Shown here one piece after another: positions 19,377-27,633 of a stretch of 27,633 nucleotides of DNA. Within the stretch, counting starts at the first letter, position 1; every line of letters begins with the position of its first letter. Location of the stretch: IMG/VR virus record IMGVR_UViG_2630968911_000005. One strand, given 5' to 3'. The position numbers and the translations under genes were made by a program. The notes beneath the pieces were generated by a model. It saw only the letters and a list, made by a program, of their open reading frames with translations. It was not told where the DNA came from and ran no database searches. This stretch comes from a virus (lineage: Duplodnaviria > Heunggongvirae > Uroviricota > Caudoviricetes).

Positions 19377-19418
19377 GTGATATGAGGGGGCGTAGTCTGC
19401 ACGATTATCTAAATTGCT

Positions 19419-19652
19419 TCAATCTGGTCTGACCTGTTTTCTGAGCAATTCAGTAATGTCACTCTTTTCTTTGTTTGCTTCAGAAGAAACTCTTTTTTCT
19501 GAGCACAGTCTCCGGCGGCAGGCTTCAATGACCCAGGCTGAGAAATTCCCGGACCCTTTTTGCTCAAGAGCGATGTTAATTTGTTCAATCATTTGGTTAG
19601 GAAAGCGGATGTTGCGGGTTGTTGTTCTGCGGGTTCTGTTCTTCGTTGACAT
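19419..19652 (-). CDS. ynfO: YnfO-like small protein, possibly ribbon-helix-helix DNA-binding
   Basis: 77-aa basic protein; RNIRFPNQMIEQINIALEQKG resembles a beta-strand plus helix DNA-binding N-terminus. Confidence 0.7.
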   Translation of the reverse strand: MSTKNRTRRTTTRNIRFPNQMIEQINIALEQKGSGNFSAWVIEACRRRLCSEKRVSSEANKEKSDITELLRKQVRPD

Positions 19653-19851
19653 GAGGTTGCCCCGTATTCAGTGTCGCTGATTTGTATTGTCTGAAGTTGT
19701 TTTTACGTTAAGTTGATGCAGATCAATTAATACGATACCTGCGTCATAATTGATTATTTGACGTGGTTTGATGGCCTCCACGCACGTTGTGATATGTAGA
19801 TGATAATCATTATCACTTTACGGGTCCTTTCCGGTGATCCGACAGGTTACG

Positions 19852-19863
19852 GGGCGGCGACCT
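19852..19863 (+). other. cosN: lambda-type 12-nt cohesive-end sequence GGGCGGCGACCT
   Basis: CCGACAGGTTACG-GGGCGGCGACCT-CGCGGGTTTTCGCTATTTATGAAAATTTTCC matches the lambda cos junction as recalled. Confidence 0.85.
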
Positions 19864-19903
19864 CGCGGGTTTTCGCTATTTATGAAAATTTTCCGGTTTA
19901 AGG

Positions 19904-20011
19904 CGTTTCCGTTCTTCTTCGTCGTAACTTAATGTTTTTATTTAAAATACCCCCTAAAAAGAAAGGAAACGACAGGTGCTGAAAACGAACTTTTGGGCCT
20001 CTGTCGTTTCC
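19904..20011 (+). promoter_or_regulatory. cosB: terminase Nu1 binding elements R3, R2, R1 with intervening IHF-site-like AT tract
   Basis: CGTTTCC at 19904-19910, GGAAACG at 19965-19971 (inverted), CGTTTCC at 20005-20011, in lambda-like arrangement upstream of Nu1. Confidence 0.75.
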
Positions 20012-20040
20012 TTTCTCTGTTTTTGGCCGTGGAATGAACA

Positions 20041-20562
20041 ATGGAAGTCAACAAAAAGCAGCTGGCTGACATTTTCGGTGCGAGTATCCGTACCATTCAG
20101 AACTGGCAGGAACAGGGAATGCCCGTTCTGCGAGGCGGTGGCAAGGGTAATGAGGTGCTTTATGACTCTGCCGCCGTTATAAGATGGTATGCCGAAAGGG
20201 ATGCTGAAATTGAGAACGAAAAGCTGCGCCGGGAAGTTGAAGAACTGCGGCGGGCCAGCGAGACAGATCTCCAGCCAGGGACTATTGAGTACGAACGCCA
20301 TCGACTTACGCGTGCGCAGGCCGACGCACAGGAGCTGAAAAATGCCAGAGACTCCGCTGAAGTGGTGGAAACCGCATTCTGTACTTTCGTGCTGTCGCGG
20401 ATCGCAGGTGAAATTGCCAGTATTCTCGACGGGATCCCCCTGTCGGTGCAGCGGCGTTTTCCGGAACTGGAAAACCGACATGTTGATTTCCTGAAACGGG
20501 ATATCATCAAAGCCATGAACAAAGCAGCCGCGCTGGATGAACTGATACAGCATGGACGTTGA
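20041..20562 (+). CDS. nohQ: Terminase small subunit Nu1 homolog; C-terminal about 11 residues replaced at a deletion junction
   Basis: [42 protein letters not shown]... matches lambda Nu1 through ...AAALDELI, then ends QHGR. Confidence 0.9.
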
Positions 20563-23500
20563 GTACGGTCAGTACAGCGTTATTCTGTTGGTGGAGGGAT
20601 TCCCGCCGTCACATGCCGGGACCATCACCGTGTATGAAGATTCTCAACCCGGTACGCTGAATGATTTTCTCGGTGCCATGACGGAGGATGATGCCCGTCC
20701 GGAGGCACTGCGTCGTTTTGAACTGATGGTGGAAGAGGTGGCGCGTAACGCGTCCGTGGTGGCACAGAACACGGCAGCCGCAAAGAAGTCAGCCAGTGAT
20801 GCCAGCACATCTGCCAGTGAGGCGGCAACCCGTGCGACTGATGCTGCAGATTCAGCACGTGCAGCCAGCACGTCAGCCGGACAGGCCGCGTCGTCGGCTC
20901 AGTCAGCGTCTTCCAGCGCAGGAACGGCATCAACAAAGGCCACTGAAGCCTCAAAAAGTGCTGCCGCTGCAGAGTCCTCAAAAAGCGCGGCGGCTACCAG
21001 TGCCGGTGCGGCGAAAACGTCAGAAACGAATGCGGCAGCGTCAGAACAATCAGCCGCCACTTCTGCATCCACCGCGACCACGAAAGCGTCAGAAGCTGCC
21101 ACCTCAGCCAGGGATGCGTCGGCTTCAAAAGAGGCGGCAAAATCATCAGAAACGAGCGCAGCCTCGAGCGCCAGTCGTGCAGCCTCCTCGGCAACAGCGG
21201 CAGGAACTTCCGCGAAGGCGGCAAAAACGTCCGAGACGAACGCAAAGTCTTCTGAGACGGCAGCGGGACAGAGTGCCTCCGCAGCAGCAGACTCAAAAAC
21301 AGCGGCTGCCTCATCTGCCAGCGCCGCGTCAACAAATGCCGGGCAGGCCTCAGCCAGTGCCACCGCTGCCGGAAAGTCGGCAGAAAGCGCCGCATCATCC
21401 GCTTCAACAGCCACAACGAAGGCTGGCGAAGCCACTGAACAGGCCACGGTAGCAGCGAGGTCAGCTTCCGCAGCGAAGACATCCGAAACGAACGCGAAAG
21501 CGTCGGAAACCAGCGCAGAATCCTCAAAAACGGCTGCCGCATCGTCAGCCAGTTCGGCGGCGTCATCGGCATCATCGGCGTCTGCTTCAAAAGATGAGGC
21601 GACCAGACAGGCGTCAGCAGCGAAGGGCAGCGCCACGACGGCATCCACGAAGGCGACAGAGGCAGCTGGCAGTGCGACGGCGGCAGCTCAGAGCAAAAGT
21701 ACGGCGGAATCCGCGGCAACGCGCGCCGAGACAGCAGCAAAACGGGCAGAGGATATTGCATCCGCCGTGGCGCTTGAGGATGCGAGCACGACGAAAAAGG
21801 GGATAGTACAGCTCAGCAGTGCGACCAACAGTACGTCTGAAACGCTGGCGGCAACGCCAAAGGCAGTAAAATCAGCCTATGACAATGCAGAGAAACGTCT
21901 GCAGAAAGACCAGAACGGCACTGATATACCCGATAAGGGACGCTTCCTGAACAACATTAACGCGGTCAGTAAAATAGACTTTGCTGATAAGCGTGGTATG
22001 CGTTATGTGCGGGTTAACGCTCCTGCAGGTGCAACATCTGGAAAATATTACCCTGTTGTTGTTATGCGTTCTGCTGGCTCAGTAAGCGAACTGGCATCAA
22101 GGGTCATTATCACCACGGCAACGCGAACCGCAGGCGATCCGATGAATAACTGCGAGTTTAACGGATTTGTTATGCCTGGTGGCTGGACTGACAGGGGGCG
22201 TTATGCTTATGGAATGTTCTGGCAATATCAAAACAATGAACGAGCCATCCACTCAATAATGATGAGTAATAAGGGCGATGATTTGCGCTCTGTGTTCTAT
22301 GTTGATGGCGCTGCTTTCCCTGTTTTTGCGTTTATCGAAGATGGCCTGTCAATATCCGCACCTGGTGCTGATCTCGTTGTTAATGATACGACCTATAAGT
22401 TTGGGGCAACAAATCCAGCGACTGAATGTATCGCGGCGGACGTTATCCTTGATTTTAAGAGTGGGCGTGGTTTTTATGAGTCTCATTCGTTAATCGTTAA
22501 CGATAATTTGTCGTGCAAAAAACTTTTTGCCACAGACGAAATTGTAGCGCGTGGTGGTAATCAGATTCGAATGATAGGTGGGGAGTATGGTGCATTATGG
22601 CGTAATGATGGCGCTAAAACTTACCTGCTGCTTACCAATCAAGGTGATGTTTATGGTGGCTGGAATACATTAAGACCGTTTGCTATTGATAACGCAACCG
22701 GCGAACTGGTTATTGGAACCAAACTGTCCGCAAGTCTGAACGGTAATGCATTAACAGCAACAAAGCTGCAAACGCCAAGACGGGTTTCTGGTGTTGAGTT
22801 TGATGGTTCCAAAGATATTACTTTAACCGCCGCGCATGTGGCTGCTTTTGCCAGAAGGGCAACGGATACATATGCCGATGCGGATGGTGGCGTTCCCTGG
22901 AATGCCGAATCAGGTGCTTACAATGTCACCCGCTCTGGCGACAGCTATATTCTGGTTAACTTCTATACCGGAGTCGGAAGTTGCCGGACCTTGCAGATGA
23001 AGGCGCATTACAGAAATGGTGGTCTGTTCTACCGTTCTTCAAGAGACGGTTATGGTTTTGAGGATGACTGGGCAGAAGTTTATACCTCGAAAAATCTTCC
23101 ACCAGAAAGCTACCCAGTCGGCGCACCAATCCCGTGGCCATCAGATACCGTTCCGTCTGGCTATGCCCTGATGCAGGGGCAGACTTTTGACAAATCTGCA
23201 TACCCGAAACTTGCAGTGGCTTATCCGTCAGGCGTTATTCCTGATATGCGTGGCTGGACGATTAAGGGCAAGCCCGCCAGTGGTCGTGCCGTATTGTCTC
23301 AGGAACAGGACGGCATTAAATCGCACACCCACAGCGCCAGCGCATCCAGTACGGATTTGGGGACGAAAACCACATCATCGTTTGATTACGGCACTAAATC
23401 CACGAATAACACTGGTGCACATACCCATAGTGTTAGCGGTACGGCTGCTTCAGCCGGTGCACATACCCATTCGATGACATTTGTTTCAGGTGGTTCCAGT

Positions 23501-23752
23501 GGTGCTCCGGGAAGTGGATCACCTGATTATTCTAAATACAGTGTTAACACTTCTTCTGCAGGCGCTCATACGCACTCTGTATCGGGTACTGCTGCAAGCG
23601 CAGGTGCACACGCACATACTGTCGGTATTGGTGCTCATACGCACTCCGTTGCGATTGGCTCACATGGACACACCATCACCGTTAACGCTGCTGGTAACGC
23701 GGAAAACACCGTCAAAAACATCGCATTTAACTATATTGTGAGGCTTGCATAA
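20552..23752 (+). CDS. stfQ: Side tail fibre protein (lambda Stf family), N-terminally truncated by deletion
   Basis: Begins at lambda Stf internal [12 protein letters not shown]. Long Ala/Ser/Thr repeats (AAKTSETNA...). C-terminal GAHTHS repeats and ...[14 protein letters not shown]. Confidence 0.9.
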
Positions 23753-24327
23753 TGGCATTCAGAATGAGTGAACAACCACGGACCATAACAATTTATAATC
23801 TGCTGGCCGGAACTAATGAATTTATTGGTGAAGGTGATGCATATATTCCGCCTCATACAGGTCTGCCAGCAAACAGTACCGATATTGCACCGCCAGATAT
23901 TCCGGCTGGCTTCGTGGCTGTTTTCAACAGTGATGAGTCATCGTGGCATCTCGTTGAAGATCATCGGGGTAAAACGGTTTATGACGTGGCTTCCGGCGAC
24001 GCGTTATTTATTTCTGAACTCGGTCCGTTACCGAAAAATGTTACCTGGTTATCGCCGGAAGGGGAGTTTCAGAAGTGGAACGGCACAGCCTGGGTGAAGG
24101 ATACGGAAGCAGAAAAACTGTTCCGGATCCGGGAGGCGGAAGAAACAAAAAACAACCTGATGCAGGTAGCCAGTGAGCATATTGCGCCGCTTCAGGATGC
24201 TGCAGATCTGGAAATTGCAACGGAGGAAGAAATCTCGTTGCTGGAAGCATGGAAAAAGTATCGGGTATTGCTGAACCGTGTTGATACGTCAACTGCACAG
24301 GATATTGAATGGCCAGCACTGCCGTAG
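23752..24327 (+). CDS. tfaQ: Tail fibre assembly protein (Tfa)
   Basis: 191-aa ORF overlapping the stf stop (TAATG). N-terminus [26 protein letters not shown]. Confidence 0.85.
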
Positions 24328-24424
24328 GGTAAAACATATAAATTCTTTAATTAGATGTATCTTTCCATTTACGGCAAGGAAGGGGGCTTGGAAGACGTAA
24401 AGCATCTCACACCGAGATTATTTT

Positions 24425-25015
24425 TTATATGTCAGGTGTCTGAAGTTTTGCTTTGGCTCTTAAAATGGTTTGCCGCGAGGTTTTGAATTCCCGGGCAATG
24501 GCACTTATACTTACACCTGACTTAATTCGTTCGAATACCACCTGTTTCTGTTCTTCATTTAACACAGGTGGTCGACCAAAACGTTTCCCTGCGCCGCGGG
24601 CTCTTACTATCCCGGAATGAGTGCGTTCAAGTAAAAGGTCTCGTTCAAATTCAGCAACTGCTGAAATTACTTGCATCATCATTTTTCCTGTTGGACTGGT
24701 CAAGTCAATGCCCCCCAATGCTAAGCAATGTACTCTGATACCTGTTTCGGTCAGTTGTTCCACTGTTTTCCTGATATCCATTGCATTACAACCAAGGCGA
24801 TCCAGTTTTGTCACAATCAATTGATCACCACATTTCAGGCGAGCAAGCAACCGGTTAAAACTAGGACGCTCACTGGTTGCTGCTGAGCCGCTAATGTGTT
24901 CTTCGATTATTTGCTGAGGTTTGATTTTAAAACCTGCACTTTCGATTTCCCGGCGTTGATTTTCGGTGGTCTGATCCAGCGTTGATATCCGACAGTAAGC
25001 AAAAATTCGAGACAT
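24425..25015 (-). CDS. pinQ: Serine recombinase DNA invertase (Pin/Gin/Hin family)
   Basis: [20 protein letters not shown]... with the catalytic serine in the RIST motif. C-terminal HTH. Confidence 0.92.
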
Positions 25016-25331
25016 AGTGAGACTCTATACGAAATTGGTGTTCATATCATAATGCATCGCAGAAAATAATTTTGATTATTTTTGTGCATATTTGTATGTA
25101 CACGTTCGAAAATAAACGAATGCGTATGCAACCCCGTAATTTTGGTGAGACCCAAAATCGATTTTGTGAAAAATGGCTTTAACTCGGTTTGTTTTTCGAG
25201 TTCCGGGCGGACTCAAGGAAGAAGAATAGTGTTTCGTGTTATTTTAACCAGATTTTAAGTTGTTTGGTCGTGGAAAAGTGGAGCAAAATGTTGTTAAAGT
25301 GGAAAAATGATAAAAAAGTAAGTTTATTATA

Positions 25332-26349: not shown

Positions 26350-27633
26350 ATGGATTTCCAGTTATATTCGCTCGGCGCAGCGTTAGTGTTTCATGAAATA
26401 TTTTTTCCTGAATCATCAACGGCAATGGCGTTAATTCTGGCAATGGGAACCTACGGTGCAGGTTATGTGGCGCGTATTGTCGGAGCATTTATTTTCGGCA
26501 AAATGGGCGACAGAATAGGGCGTAAAAAAGTGCTCTTTTTTACCATCACCATGATGGGGATCTGTACCACCTTAATTGGTGTGTTACCGACCTATGCACA
26601 GATTGGTGTTTTTGCACCCATCTTGCTGGTGACGTTGCGTATTATTCAGGGGTTGGGTGCAGGTGCGGAAATTTCCGGTGCCGGTACGATGCTGGCGGAA
26701 TATGCGCCAAAAGGTAAGCGCGGAATTATCTCCTCATTTGTGGCTATGGGAACTAACTGCGGAACCTTGAGCGCAACGGCAATCTGGGCCTTTATGTTCT
26801 TCATTCTCAGTAAAGAGGAACTGCTGGCGTGGGGATGGCGTATACCGTTCCTGGCGAGCGTTGTCGTGATGGTCTTTGCTATCTGGTTGCGTATGAATCT
26901 GAAAGAAAGCCCGGTCTTTGAGAAGGTTAACGACAGTAACCAACCGACAGCAAAACCTGCACCTGCTGGTAGCATGTTCCAGAGCAAATCCTTCTGGCTG
27001 GCAACAGGGCTGCGTTTTGGTCAGGCGGGTAACTCCGGGTTAATTCAGACTTTCCTTGCAGGCTATTTAGTGCAGACGTTATTGTTTAACAAAGCAATTC
27101 CAACAGATGCATTGATGATCAGTTCGATTCTCGGCTTTATGACCATTCCGTTCCTTGGTTGGTTATCCGATAAAATTGGTCGCCGGATCCCGTATATTAT
27201 TATGAATACCTCCGCGATTGTGCTGGCATGGCCAATGCTTTCTATCATTGTAGATAAAAGCTATGCCCCGAGCACCATTATGGTTGCACTGATTGTGATT
27301 CATAACTGTGCGGTGCTGGGATTATTTGCTCTGGAAAACATTACCATGGCAGAAATGTTCGGCTGTAAAAACCGCTTTACCCGGATGGCTATTTCTAAAG
27401 AAATTGGTGGTCTTATCGCTTCCGGTTTTGGTCCTATCCTGGCGGGTATTTTCTGCACCATGACGGAATCCTGGTATCCGATCGCCATTATGATCATGGC
27501 ATATTCAGTGATTGGTTTAATCTCTGCGCTGAAAATGCCAGAGGTGAAAGACCGTGATTTAAGTGCGCTGGAAGACGCTGCGGAAGATCAACCGCGTGTT
27601 GTAAGAGCTGCGCAACCTTCCAGAAGTCTGTAA
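26350..27633 (+). CDS. ydfJ: MFS transporter, metabolite:H+ symporter family, 5'-truncated at the prophage junction
   Basis: GKMGDRIGRKK loop motif lies at residue about 50; by comparison with ProP as recalled the frame starts mid-TM1. In-frame TGA two codons upstream of the first ATG. Confidence 0.85.
   Translation: MDFQLYSLGAALVFHEIFFPESSTAMALILAMGTYGAGYVARIVGAFIFGKMGDRIGRKKVLFFTITMMGICTTLIGVLPTYAQIGVFAPILLVTLRIIQGLGAGAEISGAGTMLAEYAPKGKRGIISSFVAMGTNCGTLSATAIWAFMFFILSKEELLAWGWRIPFLASVVVMVFAIWLRMNLKESPVFEKVNDSNQPTAKPAPAGSMFQSKSFWLATGLRFGQAGNSGLIQTFLAGYLVQTLLFNKAIPTDALMISSILGFMTIPFLGWLSDKIGRRIPYIIMNTSAIVLAWPMLSIIVDKSYAPSTIMVALIVIHNCAVLGLFALENITMAEMFGCKNRFTRMAISKEIGGLIASGFGPILAGIFCTMTESWYPIAIMIMAYSVIGLISALKMPEVKDRDLSALEDAAEDQPRVVRAAQPSRSL

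Follow-up and report, generated by a model that had tools for sequence, protein, structure and literature searches.

The window analysed here, a 27,633-nucleotide stretch of DNA recorded as viral (IMG/VR record IMGVR_UViG_2630968911_000005), was found to be 100% identical to the chromosome of E. coli G4/9, where it falls inside the Qin cryptic prophage. The gene order of Qin around the window is int...dicB...relBE...cspBFI...nohA-stf-tfaQ-pinQ-ydfK-ydfJ. Judged from its sequence, the feature under study belongs to this defective prophage and encodes a side tail fibre of the StfR type. It lies within the following set of genes:

20041..20562, + strand: nu1 remnant, a nohA-like terminase small subunit gene (Pfam Phage_Nu1, E 6e-101)
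20552..23752, + strand: side tail fibre ORF of StfR type, 1066 aa (RefSeq: pseudogene without N-terminus)
23752..24327, + strand: tfaQ, tail fibre assembly chaperone, 191 aa (Pfam Caudo_TAP)
24425..25015, − strand: pinQ, serine recombinase adjoining the fibre module (Pfam Resolvase and HTH_7; RefSeq pinQ)

The nu1 remnant, given the product name ‘DNA-packaging protein’ in RefSeq, encodes 173 aa and, when compared with lambda nu1, has lost the C-terminus after ...AALDELI. The chaperone gene is directly downstream of the fibre gene, the start of tfaQ coinciding with the stf stop codon, and its product is of the Tfa type, with 94% identity to lambda Tfa and 99% to K-12 TfaQ but merely 29% to T4 gp38. 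Genes J and lom have been deleted at the window locus; both are present upstream of a near-identical stf in strain 19SZHZ713Rt and in phage 2H10.

Relatives of the fibre gene

StfR of the K-12 Rac prophage (b1372, 1120 aa) gave one BLASTP alignment with the window protein, at 95.2% identity over StfR 51–1120. The order of modules is the same in both, and directly after stfR there are likewise a Tfa, with 98% identity, and a Pin recombinase; the window copy differs in being without residues 1–50, in residing in Qin rather than Rac and in carrying another tip cassette. Gp23 of the lambdoid phage 2H10 (Glaedevirus), with which the fibres of mEp332, ev099, PhiR34_1 and Kati were grouped, showed 95.7% identity over 1066 aa (gp23 51–1117). 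Phage 2H10 has the same downstream tfa, invertase and ydfK-like genes, with lom and a J-type central tail fibre gene directly upstream, but its fibre is full length (1117 aa) and ends in a tip cassette unlike that of the window. Given 95% identity to both StfR and 2H10 gp23, what had been described as a mosaic fibre is the known StfR architecture, already represented in the K-12 reference genome and in sequenced lambdoid phages. This architecture, the defective state of the prophage and the N-terminal truncation of the gene were all absent from the original prediction.

Two further comparisons place the gene in a wider setting. The fibres of the virulent phages 9g and JenK1 are collinear with the window protein at 46–50% identity. 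At the same Qin locus of K-12, StfQ (b1547, 320 aa) has nohA upstream and tfaQ and pinQ downstream and is N-terminally deleted too; it keeps the last 320 aa only, matches window aa 826–1066 at 76% identity and differs in its pre-collar domain and tip cassette.

The proximal rod

The proximal part of the fibre is occupied by a single repetitive feature:

20741..21769, + strand: Ala/Ser/Thr-rich proximal rod, aa 64–406, 49 heptads

The N-terminal third of the protein had been described as Ala/Ser/Thr repeats, and this proved to be far above chance: the residue identity at lag 7 was 0.44, shuffles giving 0.226 ± 0.022, and every multiple of 7 showed a peak. Residues 85–400, about a third of the protein, consist of 37% A, 25% S and 13% T. 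The repeats of 14–15 residues that were originally reported are real, but each of them comprises two heptads, and the true unit is the seven-residue x-(T/S)-S-A-(T/S)-x-A, of which aa 64–406 comprise 49 copies in an unbroken series. Alanine was found at heptad position 7 in 45 of 45 cases and at position 4 in 32 of 45, and the heptad KTSETNA was seen at aa 155, 225 and 309. The start originally proposed for the feature, position 20750, lies 66 codons inside the ORF that begins at 20552, but corresponds roughly to the point where low complexity begins.

Tandem repetition of the DNA was rejected as the basis of this region. TRF returned two trivial arrays only, and the repeats visible at the DNA level are degenerate (60–85% identity) and spaced mostly by multiples of 21 nt, while the periodicity itself is at the protein level. 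The heptads would form a trimeric coiled-coil rod with an alanine core, and would give the protein the long proximal rod expected of the Stf/StfR family.

The central block and its shaft modules

The window protein was compared with Ur-lambda Stf (774 aa) using MAFFT and BLASTP. The published map of Ur-lambda Stf comprises a collar (1–91), a coiled coil (102–393), a hinge, a distal coiled coil (423–525) and a gp37-like receptor-binding domain (PMC12617516). Relative to this protein the window fibre falls into three segments: the first is collinear, the second dissimilar and the third 68% identical. Specifically, lambda 51–389 has its collinear counterpart in aa 1 to about 439, save for 105 extra coiled-coil residues, by which the lambda rod is 15 heptads shorter; identity in the Ala-core heptad coiled coil is 83% across the first 276 aa, and the collar and the hinge motif are common to both proteins. 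Collinearity stops within the hinge region at about aa 439, and aa 440–855 showed no significant similarity to lambda 390–525. The claim that some 400 central residues do not resemble lambda Stf was thus borne out by the domain-wise alignment, in which the centre was not collinear. These 416 residues, a beta-rich shaft, stand where lambda has a distal coiled-coil segment of about 136 aa. The features that make up this part of the protein are:

21770..21976, + strand: hinge and conserved '[26 protein letters not shown]' motif, aa 407–475
21869..23116, + strand: central block of shaft modules, aa 440–855, in place of lambda Stf 390–525
21995..22471, + strand: conserved beta-sandwich shaft domain without solved homologue, aa about 482–640
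22388..22735, + strand: Gp34_trimer-type domain, aa 613–728 (Pfam PF21446, E 3e-27)
22835..23122, + strand: domain homologous to Mu S' 321–415, aa 762–857 (PDB 8JU3; 47.7% identity by BLASTP)

Homologues of several of these modules are found in the long fibres of Mu and T4. The constant part of Mu S (Sc) ends in a stretch homologous to the hinge region, Mu S 91–176 being aligned with aa 391–475, and the boundary of the Mu G segment lies at S codon 170 or thereabouts. The Gp34_trimer-type domain matched both T4 gp34, in its C-terminal trimerisation domain (4UXE, 5NXF), and Mu S 268–336. Overall, the stretches S 56–170, S 271–336 and S' 323–408 of Mu (PDB 5YVQ, 8JU3) were homologous to the window protein at 44–48% identity. 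Based on these homologies, the block that differs from lambda appears to be an extension of the shaft.

The beta-sandwich domain was also seen in siphophages and myophages of Escherichia, Vibrio and Aeromonas, where it forms part of long fibres. An AF2 monomer model of aa 430–870 was unusable (mean pLDDT 42.9), while that of aa 470–665 was of moderate quality (pLDDT 68, pTM 0.73). A Foldseek search of the latter against the PDB gave no match at E<1e-3, the only fold matches being tail-fibre models in BFVD, and a PDB profile search with alignment A2 added nothing for this domain. That the modelled domain is globular and beta-sandwich or jelly-roll-like, and that it occurs widely among long fibres with strong conservation, could suggest a lateral, auxiliary site at which surface glycans are bound, in which case StfR-type fibres would be bivalent, binding through both the shaft and the gp37-like tip. 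We consider such a site quite unlikely, given that all the fold matches are weak and that conservation across differing tips and hosts suits a structural knob better than an element of specificity.

N-terminal truncation

Two features describe the 5' end of the gene:

20546..20548, + strand: nu1/stf deletion junction with 3-bp microhomology (TAC); the RefSeq pseudogene starts at 20546
20552..20803, + strand: C-terminal part only of the tail-attachment (collar) domain (Pfam phage_tail_N, 51–134 of 134)

The junction was mapped by lining up the window with lambda nu1, lambda stf and 2H10 stf. The deletion fuses nu1 to stf at about codon 50–51, with the result that residues 1–50 of the full-length protein are gone and that all head and tail genes between nu1 and stf are missing at this locus. 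Alignments with lambda Stf, StfR and 2H10 gp23 all begin at residue 51, and residues 51–94 of PDB 9E7M chain Ta match aa 1–44 of the window protein. On the tail, the collar consists of residues 1–91 of Ur-lambda StfN (PMC12617516). The N-terminal collar domain (PF08400) of the window protein is incomplete, which makes it a truncated member of the Stf/StfR family. An illegitimate deletion at the TAC microhomology would have joined nu1 to stf at the cost of half of this domain. The exact junction was found in one of 5426 complete E. coli genomes and is strain-specific; other strains carry other nested deletions, with full-length stf upstream remnants.

As it stands, the truncated gene would presumably be unable to supply a virion with fibres in situ, and would be a recent pseudogene or remnant. 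The frame of 1066 codons is nevertheless still open and its ATG at 20552 overlaps the nu1 stop, so that some truncated protein may be made. With tfaQ intact downstream, one could also envisage a gene that still functions, coupled to the nu1 stop and yielding, with TfaQ, a free trimeric fibre for a cellular role or for use in trans by a helper phage. Such continued function appears very unlikely: half of the domain that docks onto the tail is absent, no Shine-Dalgarno-like sequence was seen upstream of the ATG, and a scan of 19400–24500 for promoters and terminators gave counts no higher than those in shuffles. In addition, the same locus in K-12 holds an even shorter remnant, and with the junction present in a single genome the open frame is most simply explained by recency. 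Synonymous codon changes outnumbered non-synonymous ones at 88:40 relative to StfR and at 77:40 relative to 2H10, an excess that reflects the history of the family and not necessarily that of the window copy. For the remnant itself, the most plausible remaining role would be that of a recombination stock for incoming lambdoid phages, lambda being able to pick up DNA from the stf-tfa regions of Qin and Rac at about 2e-6. For annotation purposes, this stf is best regarded as a remnant truncated at its N-terminus.

The receptor-binding needle and its tip

The protein's C-terminal part contains two nested features:

23102..23749, + strand: receptor-binding module of T4 gp37/lambda Stf type, aa 851–1066 (Pfam Collar, Phage_fiber)
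23441..23548, + strand: hypervariable tip cassette, aa 964–999 (36 residues)

The lambda-like character that had been noted for the C-terminus was evident over aa 854–1066, where the window protein is 68% identical to lambda Stf 530–774. The module, a collar domain followed by a needle, also matched the T4 gp37 tip structure 2XGF with an E value of 1.6e-88, and its 216 aa are 69.7% identical to gp37 812–1026 over 221 columns. As in T4 gp37, the collar domain is accompanied by seven HxH motifs (aa 925, 957, 971, 1006, 1020, 1029 and 1038) and by a chaperone gene directly downstream; the motifs are predicted to coordinate iron along the needle in the manner of gp37. Residues 974–999 align with the gp37 tip subdomain 932–959, the sequence of which is not conserved in the window protein, and the remainder of gp37 is unrelated save for a weak repeat match.

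Differences between the window protein and both StfR and 2H10 gp23 cluster at aa 964–999, and lambda Stf likewise has a different cassette. Homologues sharing the central module contained 24 distinct cassette sequences between conserved flanks, which we sorted into at least eight unrelated types, and divergence in the family of receptor-binding proteins of roughly 215 aa was found mainly at this cassette. In gp37, tip residues 932–959 carry the contacts to LPS and OmpC, according to the tip definition and mutagenesis reported in PMC6957217. Taken from these comparisons, receptor specificity most likely sits in the C-terminal gp37-like needle, at the tip cassette. Receptor data on the near-identical fibres of phages such as mEp332 were looked for in the library searched, and none turned up.

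The original prediction had instead placed specificity in the central block, as a receptor-binding module exchanged relative to lambda. Although lambda Stf 390–525 is not homologous to it, its boundaries are sharp and it holds a conserved globular beta-sandwich domain, we find this reading highly unlikely, in that aa 476–837 are 100% identical to K-12 StfR and to 2H10 gp23 in spite of their different tips, the same module stands upstream of at least eight unrelated tip cassette types, its most conserved domain also precedes several unrelated C-terminal ends (Mu/P2-like, Peptidase_S74 and another type), parts of it are homologous to the shafts of Mu S/S' and T4 gp34, and a complete gp37-type receptor-binding needle follows it. 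The original prediction as a whole was confirmed in its description of the fibre, and in its interpretation it was partly supported (the term mosaic tail fibre and the spurious ORFs hold) but for the most part wrong. What we propose instead, an N-terminally truncated StfR-type fibre with a shaft-type centre and specificity in the tip cassette, is in our view very probably the best overall explanation.

In its full-length form, such a fibre would be clamped onto the tail by its N-terminal collar domain, from which a long coiled-coil rod, trimeric and built from (x-T/S-S-A-T/S-x-A) heptads around a core of alanines, would lead to the hinge. Beyond the hinge there would follow about 415 residues of beta-rich shaft modules, common to Mu S/S' and T4 gp34, and then distally an iron-stapled needle like that of T4 gp37, folded with the help of TfaQ. 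Which surface receptor of the OmpC/LPS type is bound would be set by a small loop cassette (aa about 964–999) located at the needle's distal pole. For host-range prediction and fibre engineering, efforts are best directed at the tip cassette of 36 residues, together with the Tfa that matches it, and not at the central block. The locus is otherwise a textbook example of modular tail fibres and of a prophage decaying step by step, with little import beyond correct annotation.

Search for an invertible segment

A serine recombinase gene, pinQ, adjoins the fibre-chaperone pair, as is also the case in Mu. An invertible segment driven by pinQ, of the Mu G, P1 C or e14 P type, was considered and rejected. 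Inverted repeats found in 21700–25200 were short and imperfect only: none exceeded 21 nt, and none of at least 16 nt was above 88% complementarity. Dyad symmetry was absent from the DNA at the codons equivalent to Mu gix, and the window has no gix-like repeats. There was no second fibre-tip/chaperone cassette in the opposite orientation, since a single tfa is present and no antisense fibre fragment was found in the 97-nt gap between tfaQ and pinQ. In contrast with Mu, the window is without an S'v-U' cassette, and its C-terminal domain is of the gp37 type.

Off-frame reading frames in the rod DNA

Four long reading frames overlap the DNA of the rod:

20625..20981, − strand: spurious 118-aa antisense ORF, without Pfam match above threshold
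20796..21452, + strand: spurious 218-aa ORF in the +1 frame of the coiled-coil DNA, without Pfam match
20899..21648, − strand: spurious 249-aa antisense ORF, its sole Pfam match below threshold
20994..21761, − strand: spurious 255-aa antisense ORF, without Pfam match above threshold

It had been suggested that low complexity generates long false ORFs on both strands here, and this was upheld. Merely one or two stops occur in three of the five alternative frames of the low-complexity DNA, and codon shuffling gave open runs with a mean of 281 codons as compared with the 262 observed. As codon shuffles reproduce the off-frame ORFs, these are artefacts of composition. A Pfam scan of these ORFs returned none above threshold, and on both grounds they were ruled out as real genes; ORFs lying off-frame within 20625–21761 should not be called as genes in annotation. 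Lastly, a database ‘tail protein’ (P0124) was observed to have an N-terminus derived from the antisense frame of such coiled-coil DNA; its gene lies at the edge of a draft contig, and the arrangement is either a real inversion or an assembly artefact.

Genomic context of the fibre gene

A megablast search of complete E. coli genomes returned a 100% match between window 19900-25100 and the chromosome of strain G4/9, and the neighbourhood is the Qin cryptic prophage. Its layout is as follows:

26350-27633 and 2-1297: prophage ends, both within the window
Annotated Qin genes: integrase, xis, exonuclease, dicB, relBE, hokD, cspB/F/I, lysis genes, ydfO and ynfO
Then, in order: DNA-packaging (Nu1) gene, fibre gene, tfaQ, pinQ, ydfK and the interrupted host gene ydfJ
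20041-20562: nu1 remnant
20546-20548: nu1/stf junction
20552-23752 (+): side tail fibre (stf) ORF, 1066 codons
20741-21769: predicted coiled-coil rod, alanine at both core positions throughout
24425-25015 (-): pinQ serine recombinase gene, beside tfaQ

At the left prophage end the tyrosine integrase gene is an apparently intact 431-aa ORF, and at the right end the annotation has the host transporter gene ydfJ without its N-terminus. Inside the prophage there are also transposase genes of IS3 and ISNCY. The fibre start previously proposed at 20750 falls 66 codons inside the ORF, and in RefSeq the gene (window 20546-23752) is already labelled a pseudogene.

When the window was compared with the nu1 and stf genes of lambda and with the stf of lambdoid phage 2H10, the nu1/stf junction fell at a shared TAC, a 3-bp microhomology, where Nu1 ends after ...AALDELI and stf resumes inside codon ~50. 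Everything between the two genes, gpA through J and lom, has been deleted. Every alignment with full-length Stf-type proteins starts at their residue 51, and only positions 51-134 of the Pfam phage_tail_N profile were matched. In the Ur-lambda structure, residues 1-91 make up a collar that holds the fibre on the tail where gpV meets gpM (PMC12617516); PDB 9E7M chain Ta spans this domain, and just its residues 51-94 match the window protein, which therefore lacks over half of the docking domain. The Qin prophage of G4/9 has no tail for the fibre to dock to.

When 5426 complete genomes were searched with a 240-nt probe across the junction, it was found intact in one, G4/9 itself. Other strains carry different nested deletions at the same site:

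Strain 1303: retains nohA, gpA and E fragments, FI, FII, a tail gene fragment and full-length stf
Strain 19SZHZ713Rt: retains a nu1 stub, a J fragment, lom and full-length stf
K-12: retains nohA fused to the last 320 codons of stf

Across these three strains and G4/9 the nu1-stf deletions are independent and nested. That the 1066-codon frame is still open in G4/9 is most simply explained by a recent deletion.

An StfR-type fibre

The fibre had originally been described as a mosaic relative to lambda Stf, with a centre that does not resemble it. We aligned it by MAFFT and BLASTP with the 774-aa Ur-lambda-type Stf, taken from a lambda record with a frameshift-free gene, and the description proved accurate. 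Residues 1 to ~439 are collinear with lambda Stf 51-389, the first 276 being 83% identical, and residues 854-1066 share 68% identity with lambda 530-774. Between them, residues 440-855 (416 aa; the central block) take the place of lambda 390-525 (136 aa), to which they show no significant similarity, so that the centre is not collinear.

BLASTP showed 95.2% identity to StfR, the Rac side tail fibre of K-12 (1120 aa), over StfR 51-1120, and 95.7% identity to the 2H10 fibre gp23 (1117 aa). The "mosaic" is therefore the standard StfR architecture, already known from the E. coli reference genome and sequenced lambdoid phages. By tblastn of phage genomes, the same fibre (92-96% identity) occurs in 2H10, mEp332, ev099, PhiR34_1, Kati and others, and 9g and JenK1, which are virulent phages of Nonagvirus, encode collinear fibres that are 46-50% identical. 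The original prediction had overlooked that the gene is truncated, that it lies in a prophage and that its product is nearly identical to StfR.

Central block and tip cassette

The central block was mapped by PDB sequence search, BLASTP against Mu and T4 proteins, and Pfam:

aa 348-475: matches Mu S 56-176, the last stretch of the constant part (S codon ~170 marks the edge of the Mu G segment)
aa 613-728: Gp34_trimer domain, matching T4 gp34 ~1043-1120 and Mu S 268-336
aa 762-857: matches Mu S' 321-415
aa 851-1066: matches the T4 gp37 tip

For aa ~476-640 no solved relative was detected by these searches. A strongly conserved beta-sandwich domain lies here (aa ~482-640, window 21995-22471) and, among phages of Escherichia, Vibrio and Aeromonas, is widespread in the long tail fibres.

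It had been suggested that the centre is an exchanged receptor-binding module, and this was not supported. Residues 476-837 match StfR and 2H10 gp23 at 100% identity, and the beta-sandwich domain also stands upstream of entirely different C-terminal ends (Mu S/P2-like, Peptidase_S74-type and a third type). Variation was instead found at the tip, where database proteins similar to the central block carry 24 distinct sequence forms between two conserved HxH flanks. Given the invariant centre, these tip forms and the unrelated C-terminal ends, the central block is probably a shaft rather than a receptor-binding module. As judged from its sequence matches, it would add length and articulation to the fibre in place of lambda's short distal coiled coil.

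We grouped the 24 forms into at least eight unrelated types of 63-84 aa, and the window tip cassette (aa 964-999), where the differences from StfR and 2H10 gp23 concentrate, is one recurrent type among them. The C-terminal 216 aa, with seven HxH motifs, are 69.7% identical to T4 gp37 812-1026. In gp37 the tip subdomain 932-959 is inserted in the stem, makes up the distal pole and has residues required for LPS and OmpC binding (PMC6957217); the 2XGF alignment pairs it with window aa 974-999. A survey of this ~215-aa RBP family likewise found divergence centred on the tip region, with a chaperone gene always next (PMC9659904). Here tfaQ, the chaperone gene, begins at the stop codon of stf; its product shares 94% identity with lambda Tfa and 29% with T4 gp38. 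The tip cassette is thus probably the specificity element of the fibre.

Recombinase and recombination

In Mu, P1 and e14, gin, cin and pin adjoin the fibre-chaperone pair, as pinQ adjoins tfaQ here. An invertible shufflon was nevertheless rejected: the pinQ locus lacks a second tip-chaperone cassette in inverted orientation, 21700-25200 contains only short, imperfect inverted repeats with none resembling a crossover site, and there is no dyad symmetry at the codons that correspond to the Mu gix site. PinQ appears to be an orphan recombinase.

The fibre gene cannot supply a fibre to a Qin virion, because head and tail genes are absent and the docking domain is broken. No Shine-Dalgarno-like sequence was found upstream of the fibre ATG and promoter-like sites were not in excess. 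Recombination is a documented fate of such prophage remnants: the stf-tfa regions of Qin and Rac donate markers to lambda at ~2e-6 per phage, mostly via Red-beta (PMC3945230). Rescue of the module into an incoming lambdoid phage is therefore possible, and could proceed via flanking homology in the coiled-coil region upstream and tfa downstream.

Heptad rod and off-frame ORFs

The low-complexity repeats are real, although the proposed 14-15-residue "unit" is two heptads. In residues 85-400, Ala makes up 37%, Ser 25% and Thr 13%, and when the sequence was stacked in sevens, 49 heptads followed one another without skip or stutter (aa 64-406). Their consensus is x-(T/S)-S-A-(T/S)-x-A, with Ala at position 7 in 45/45, Ala at position 4 in 32/45 and Ser at position 3 in 35/45. 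Lag-7 residue identity was 0.44 vs 0.226 +/- 0.022 in shuffles, with a peak at each multiple of 7 up to 77, and larger blocks of KTSETNA type repeat at 10- and 12-heptad spacing. TRF reported almost nothing on the repeat DNA, because its copies are just 60-85% alike and phased mostly at multiples of 21 nt. The rod exceeds lambda's by 105 aa, exactly 15 heptads; this in-register change suggests expansion via multi-heptad block duplication.

Off-frame ORFs are present on the plus (218 aa) and minus (249, 255 and 118 aa) strands, and three of the five alternative frames contain 0-2 stop codons in the low-complexity DNA. Codon shuffles gave equal or longer open runs (mean 281 codons vs 262 observed), and none of the four ORFs matched Pfam above threshold. 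They are, as originally predicted, spurious by-products of GCN/TCN/ACN-rich coding sequence. In P0124, a database "phage tail protein", the central block is preceded by an N-terminus translated from an antisense frame of the Ala/Ser coiled-coil DNA. In the encoding DNA (positions 1-2248 of a Rac-region sequence from a draft E. coli assembly), window 20923-21385 is inverted and joined to window 22013; at this contig edge the arrangement may reflect either a genuine inversion or faulty assembly. P0124 is an example of spurious frames ending up annotated.
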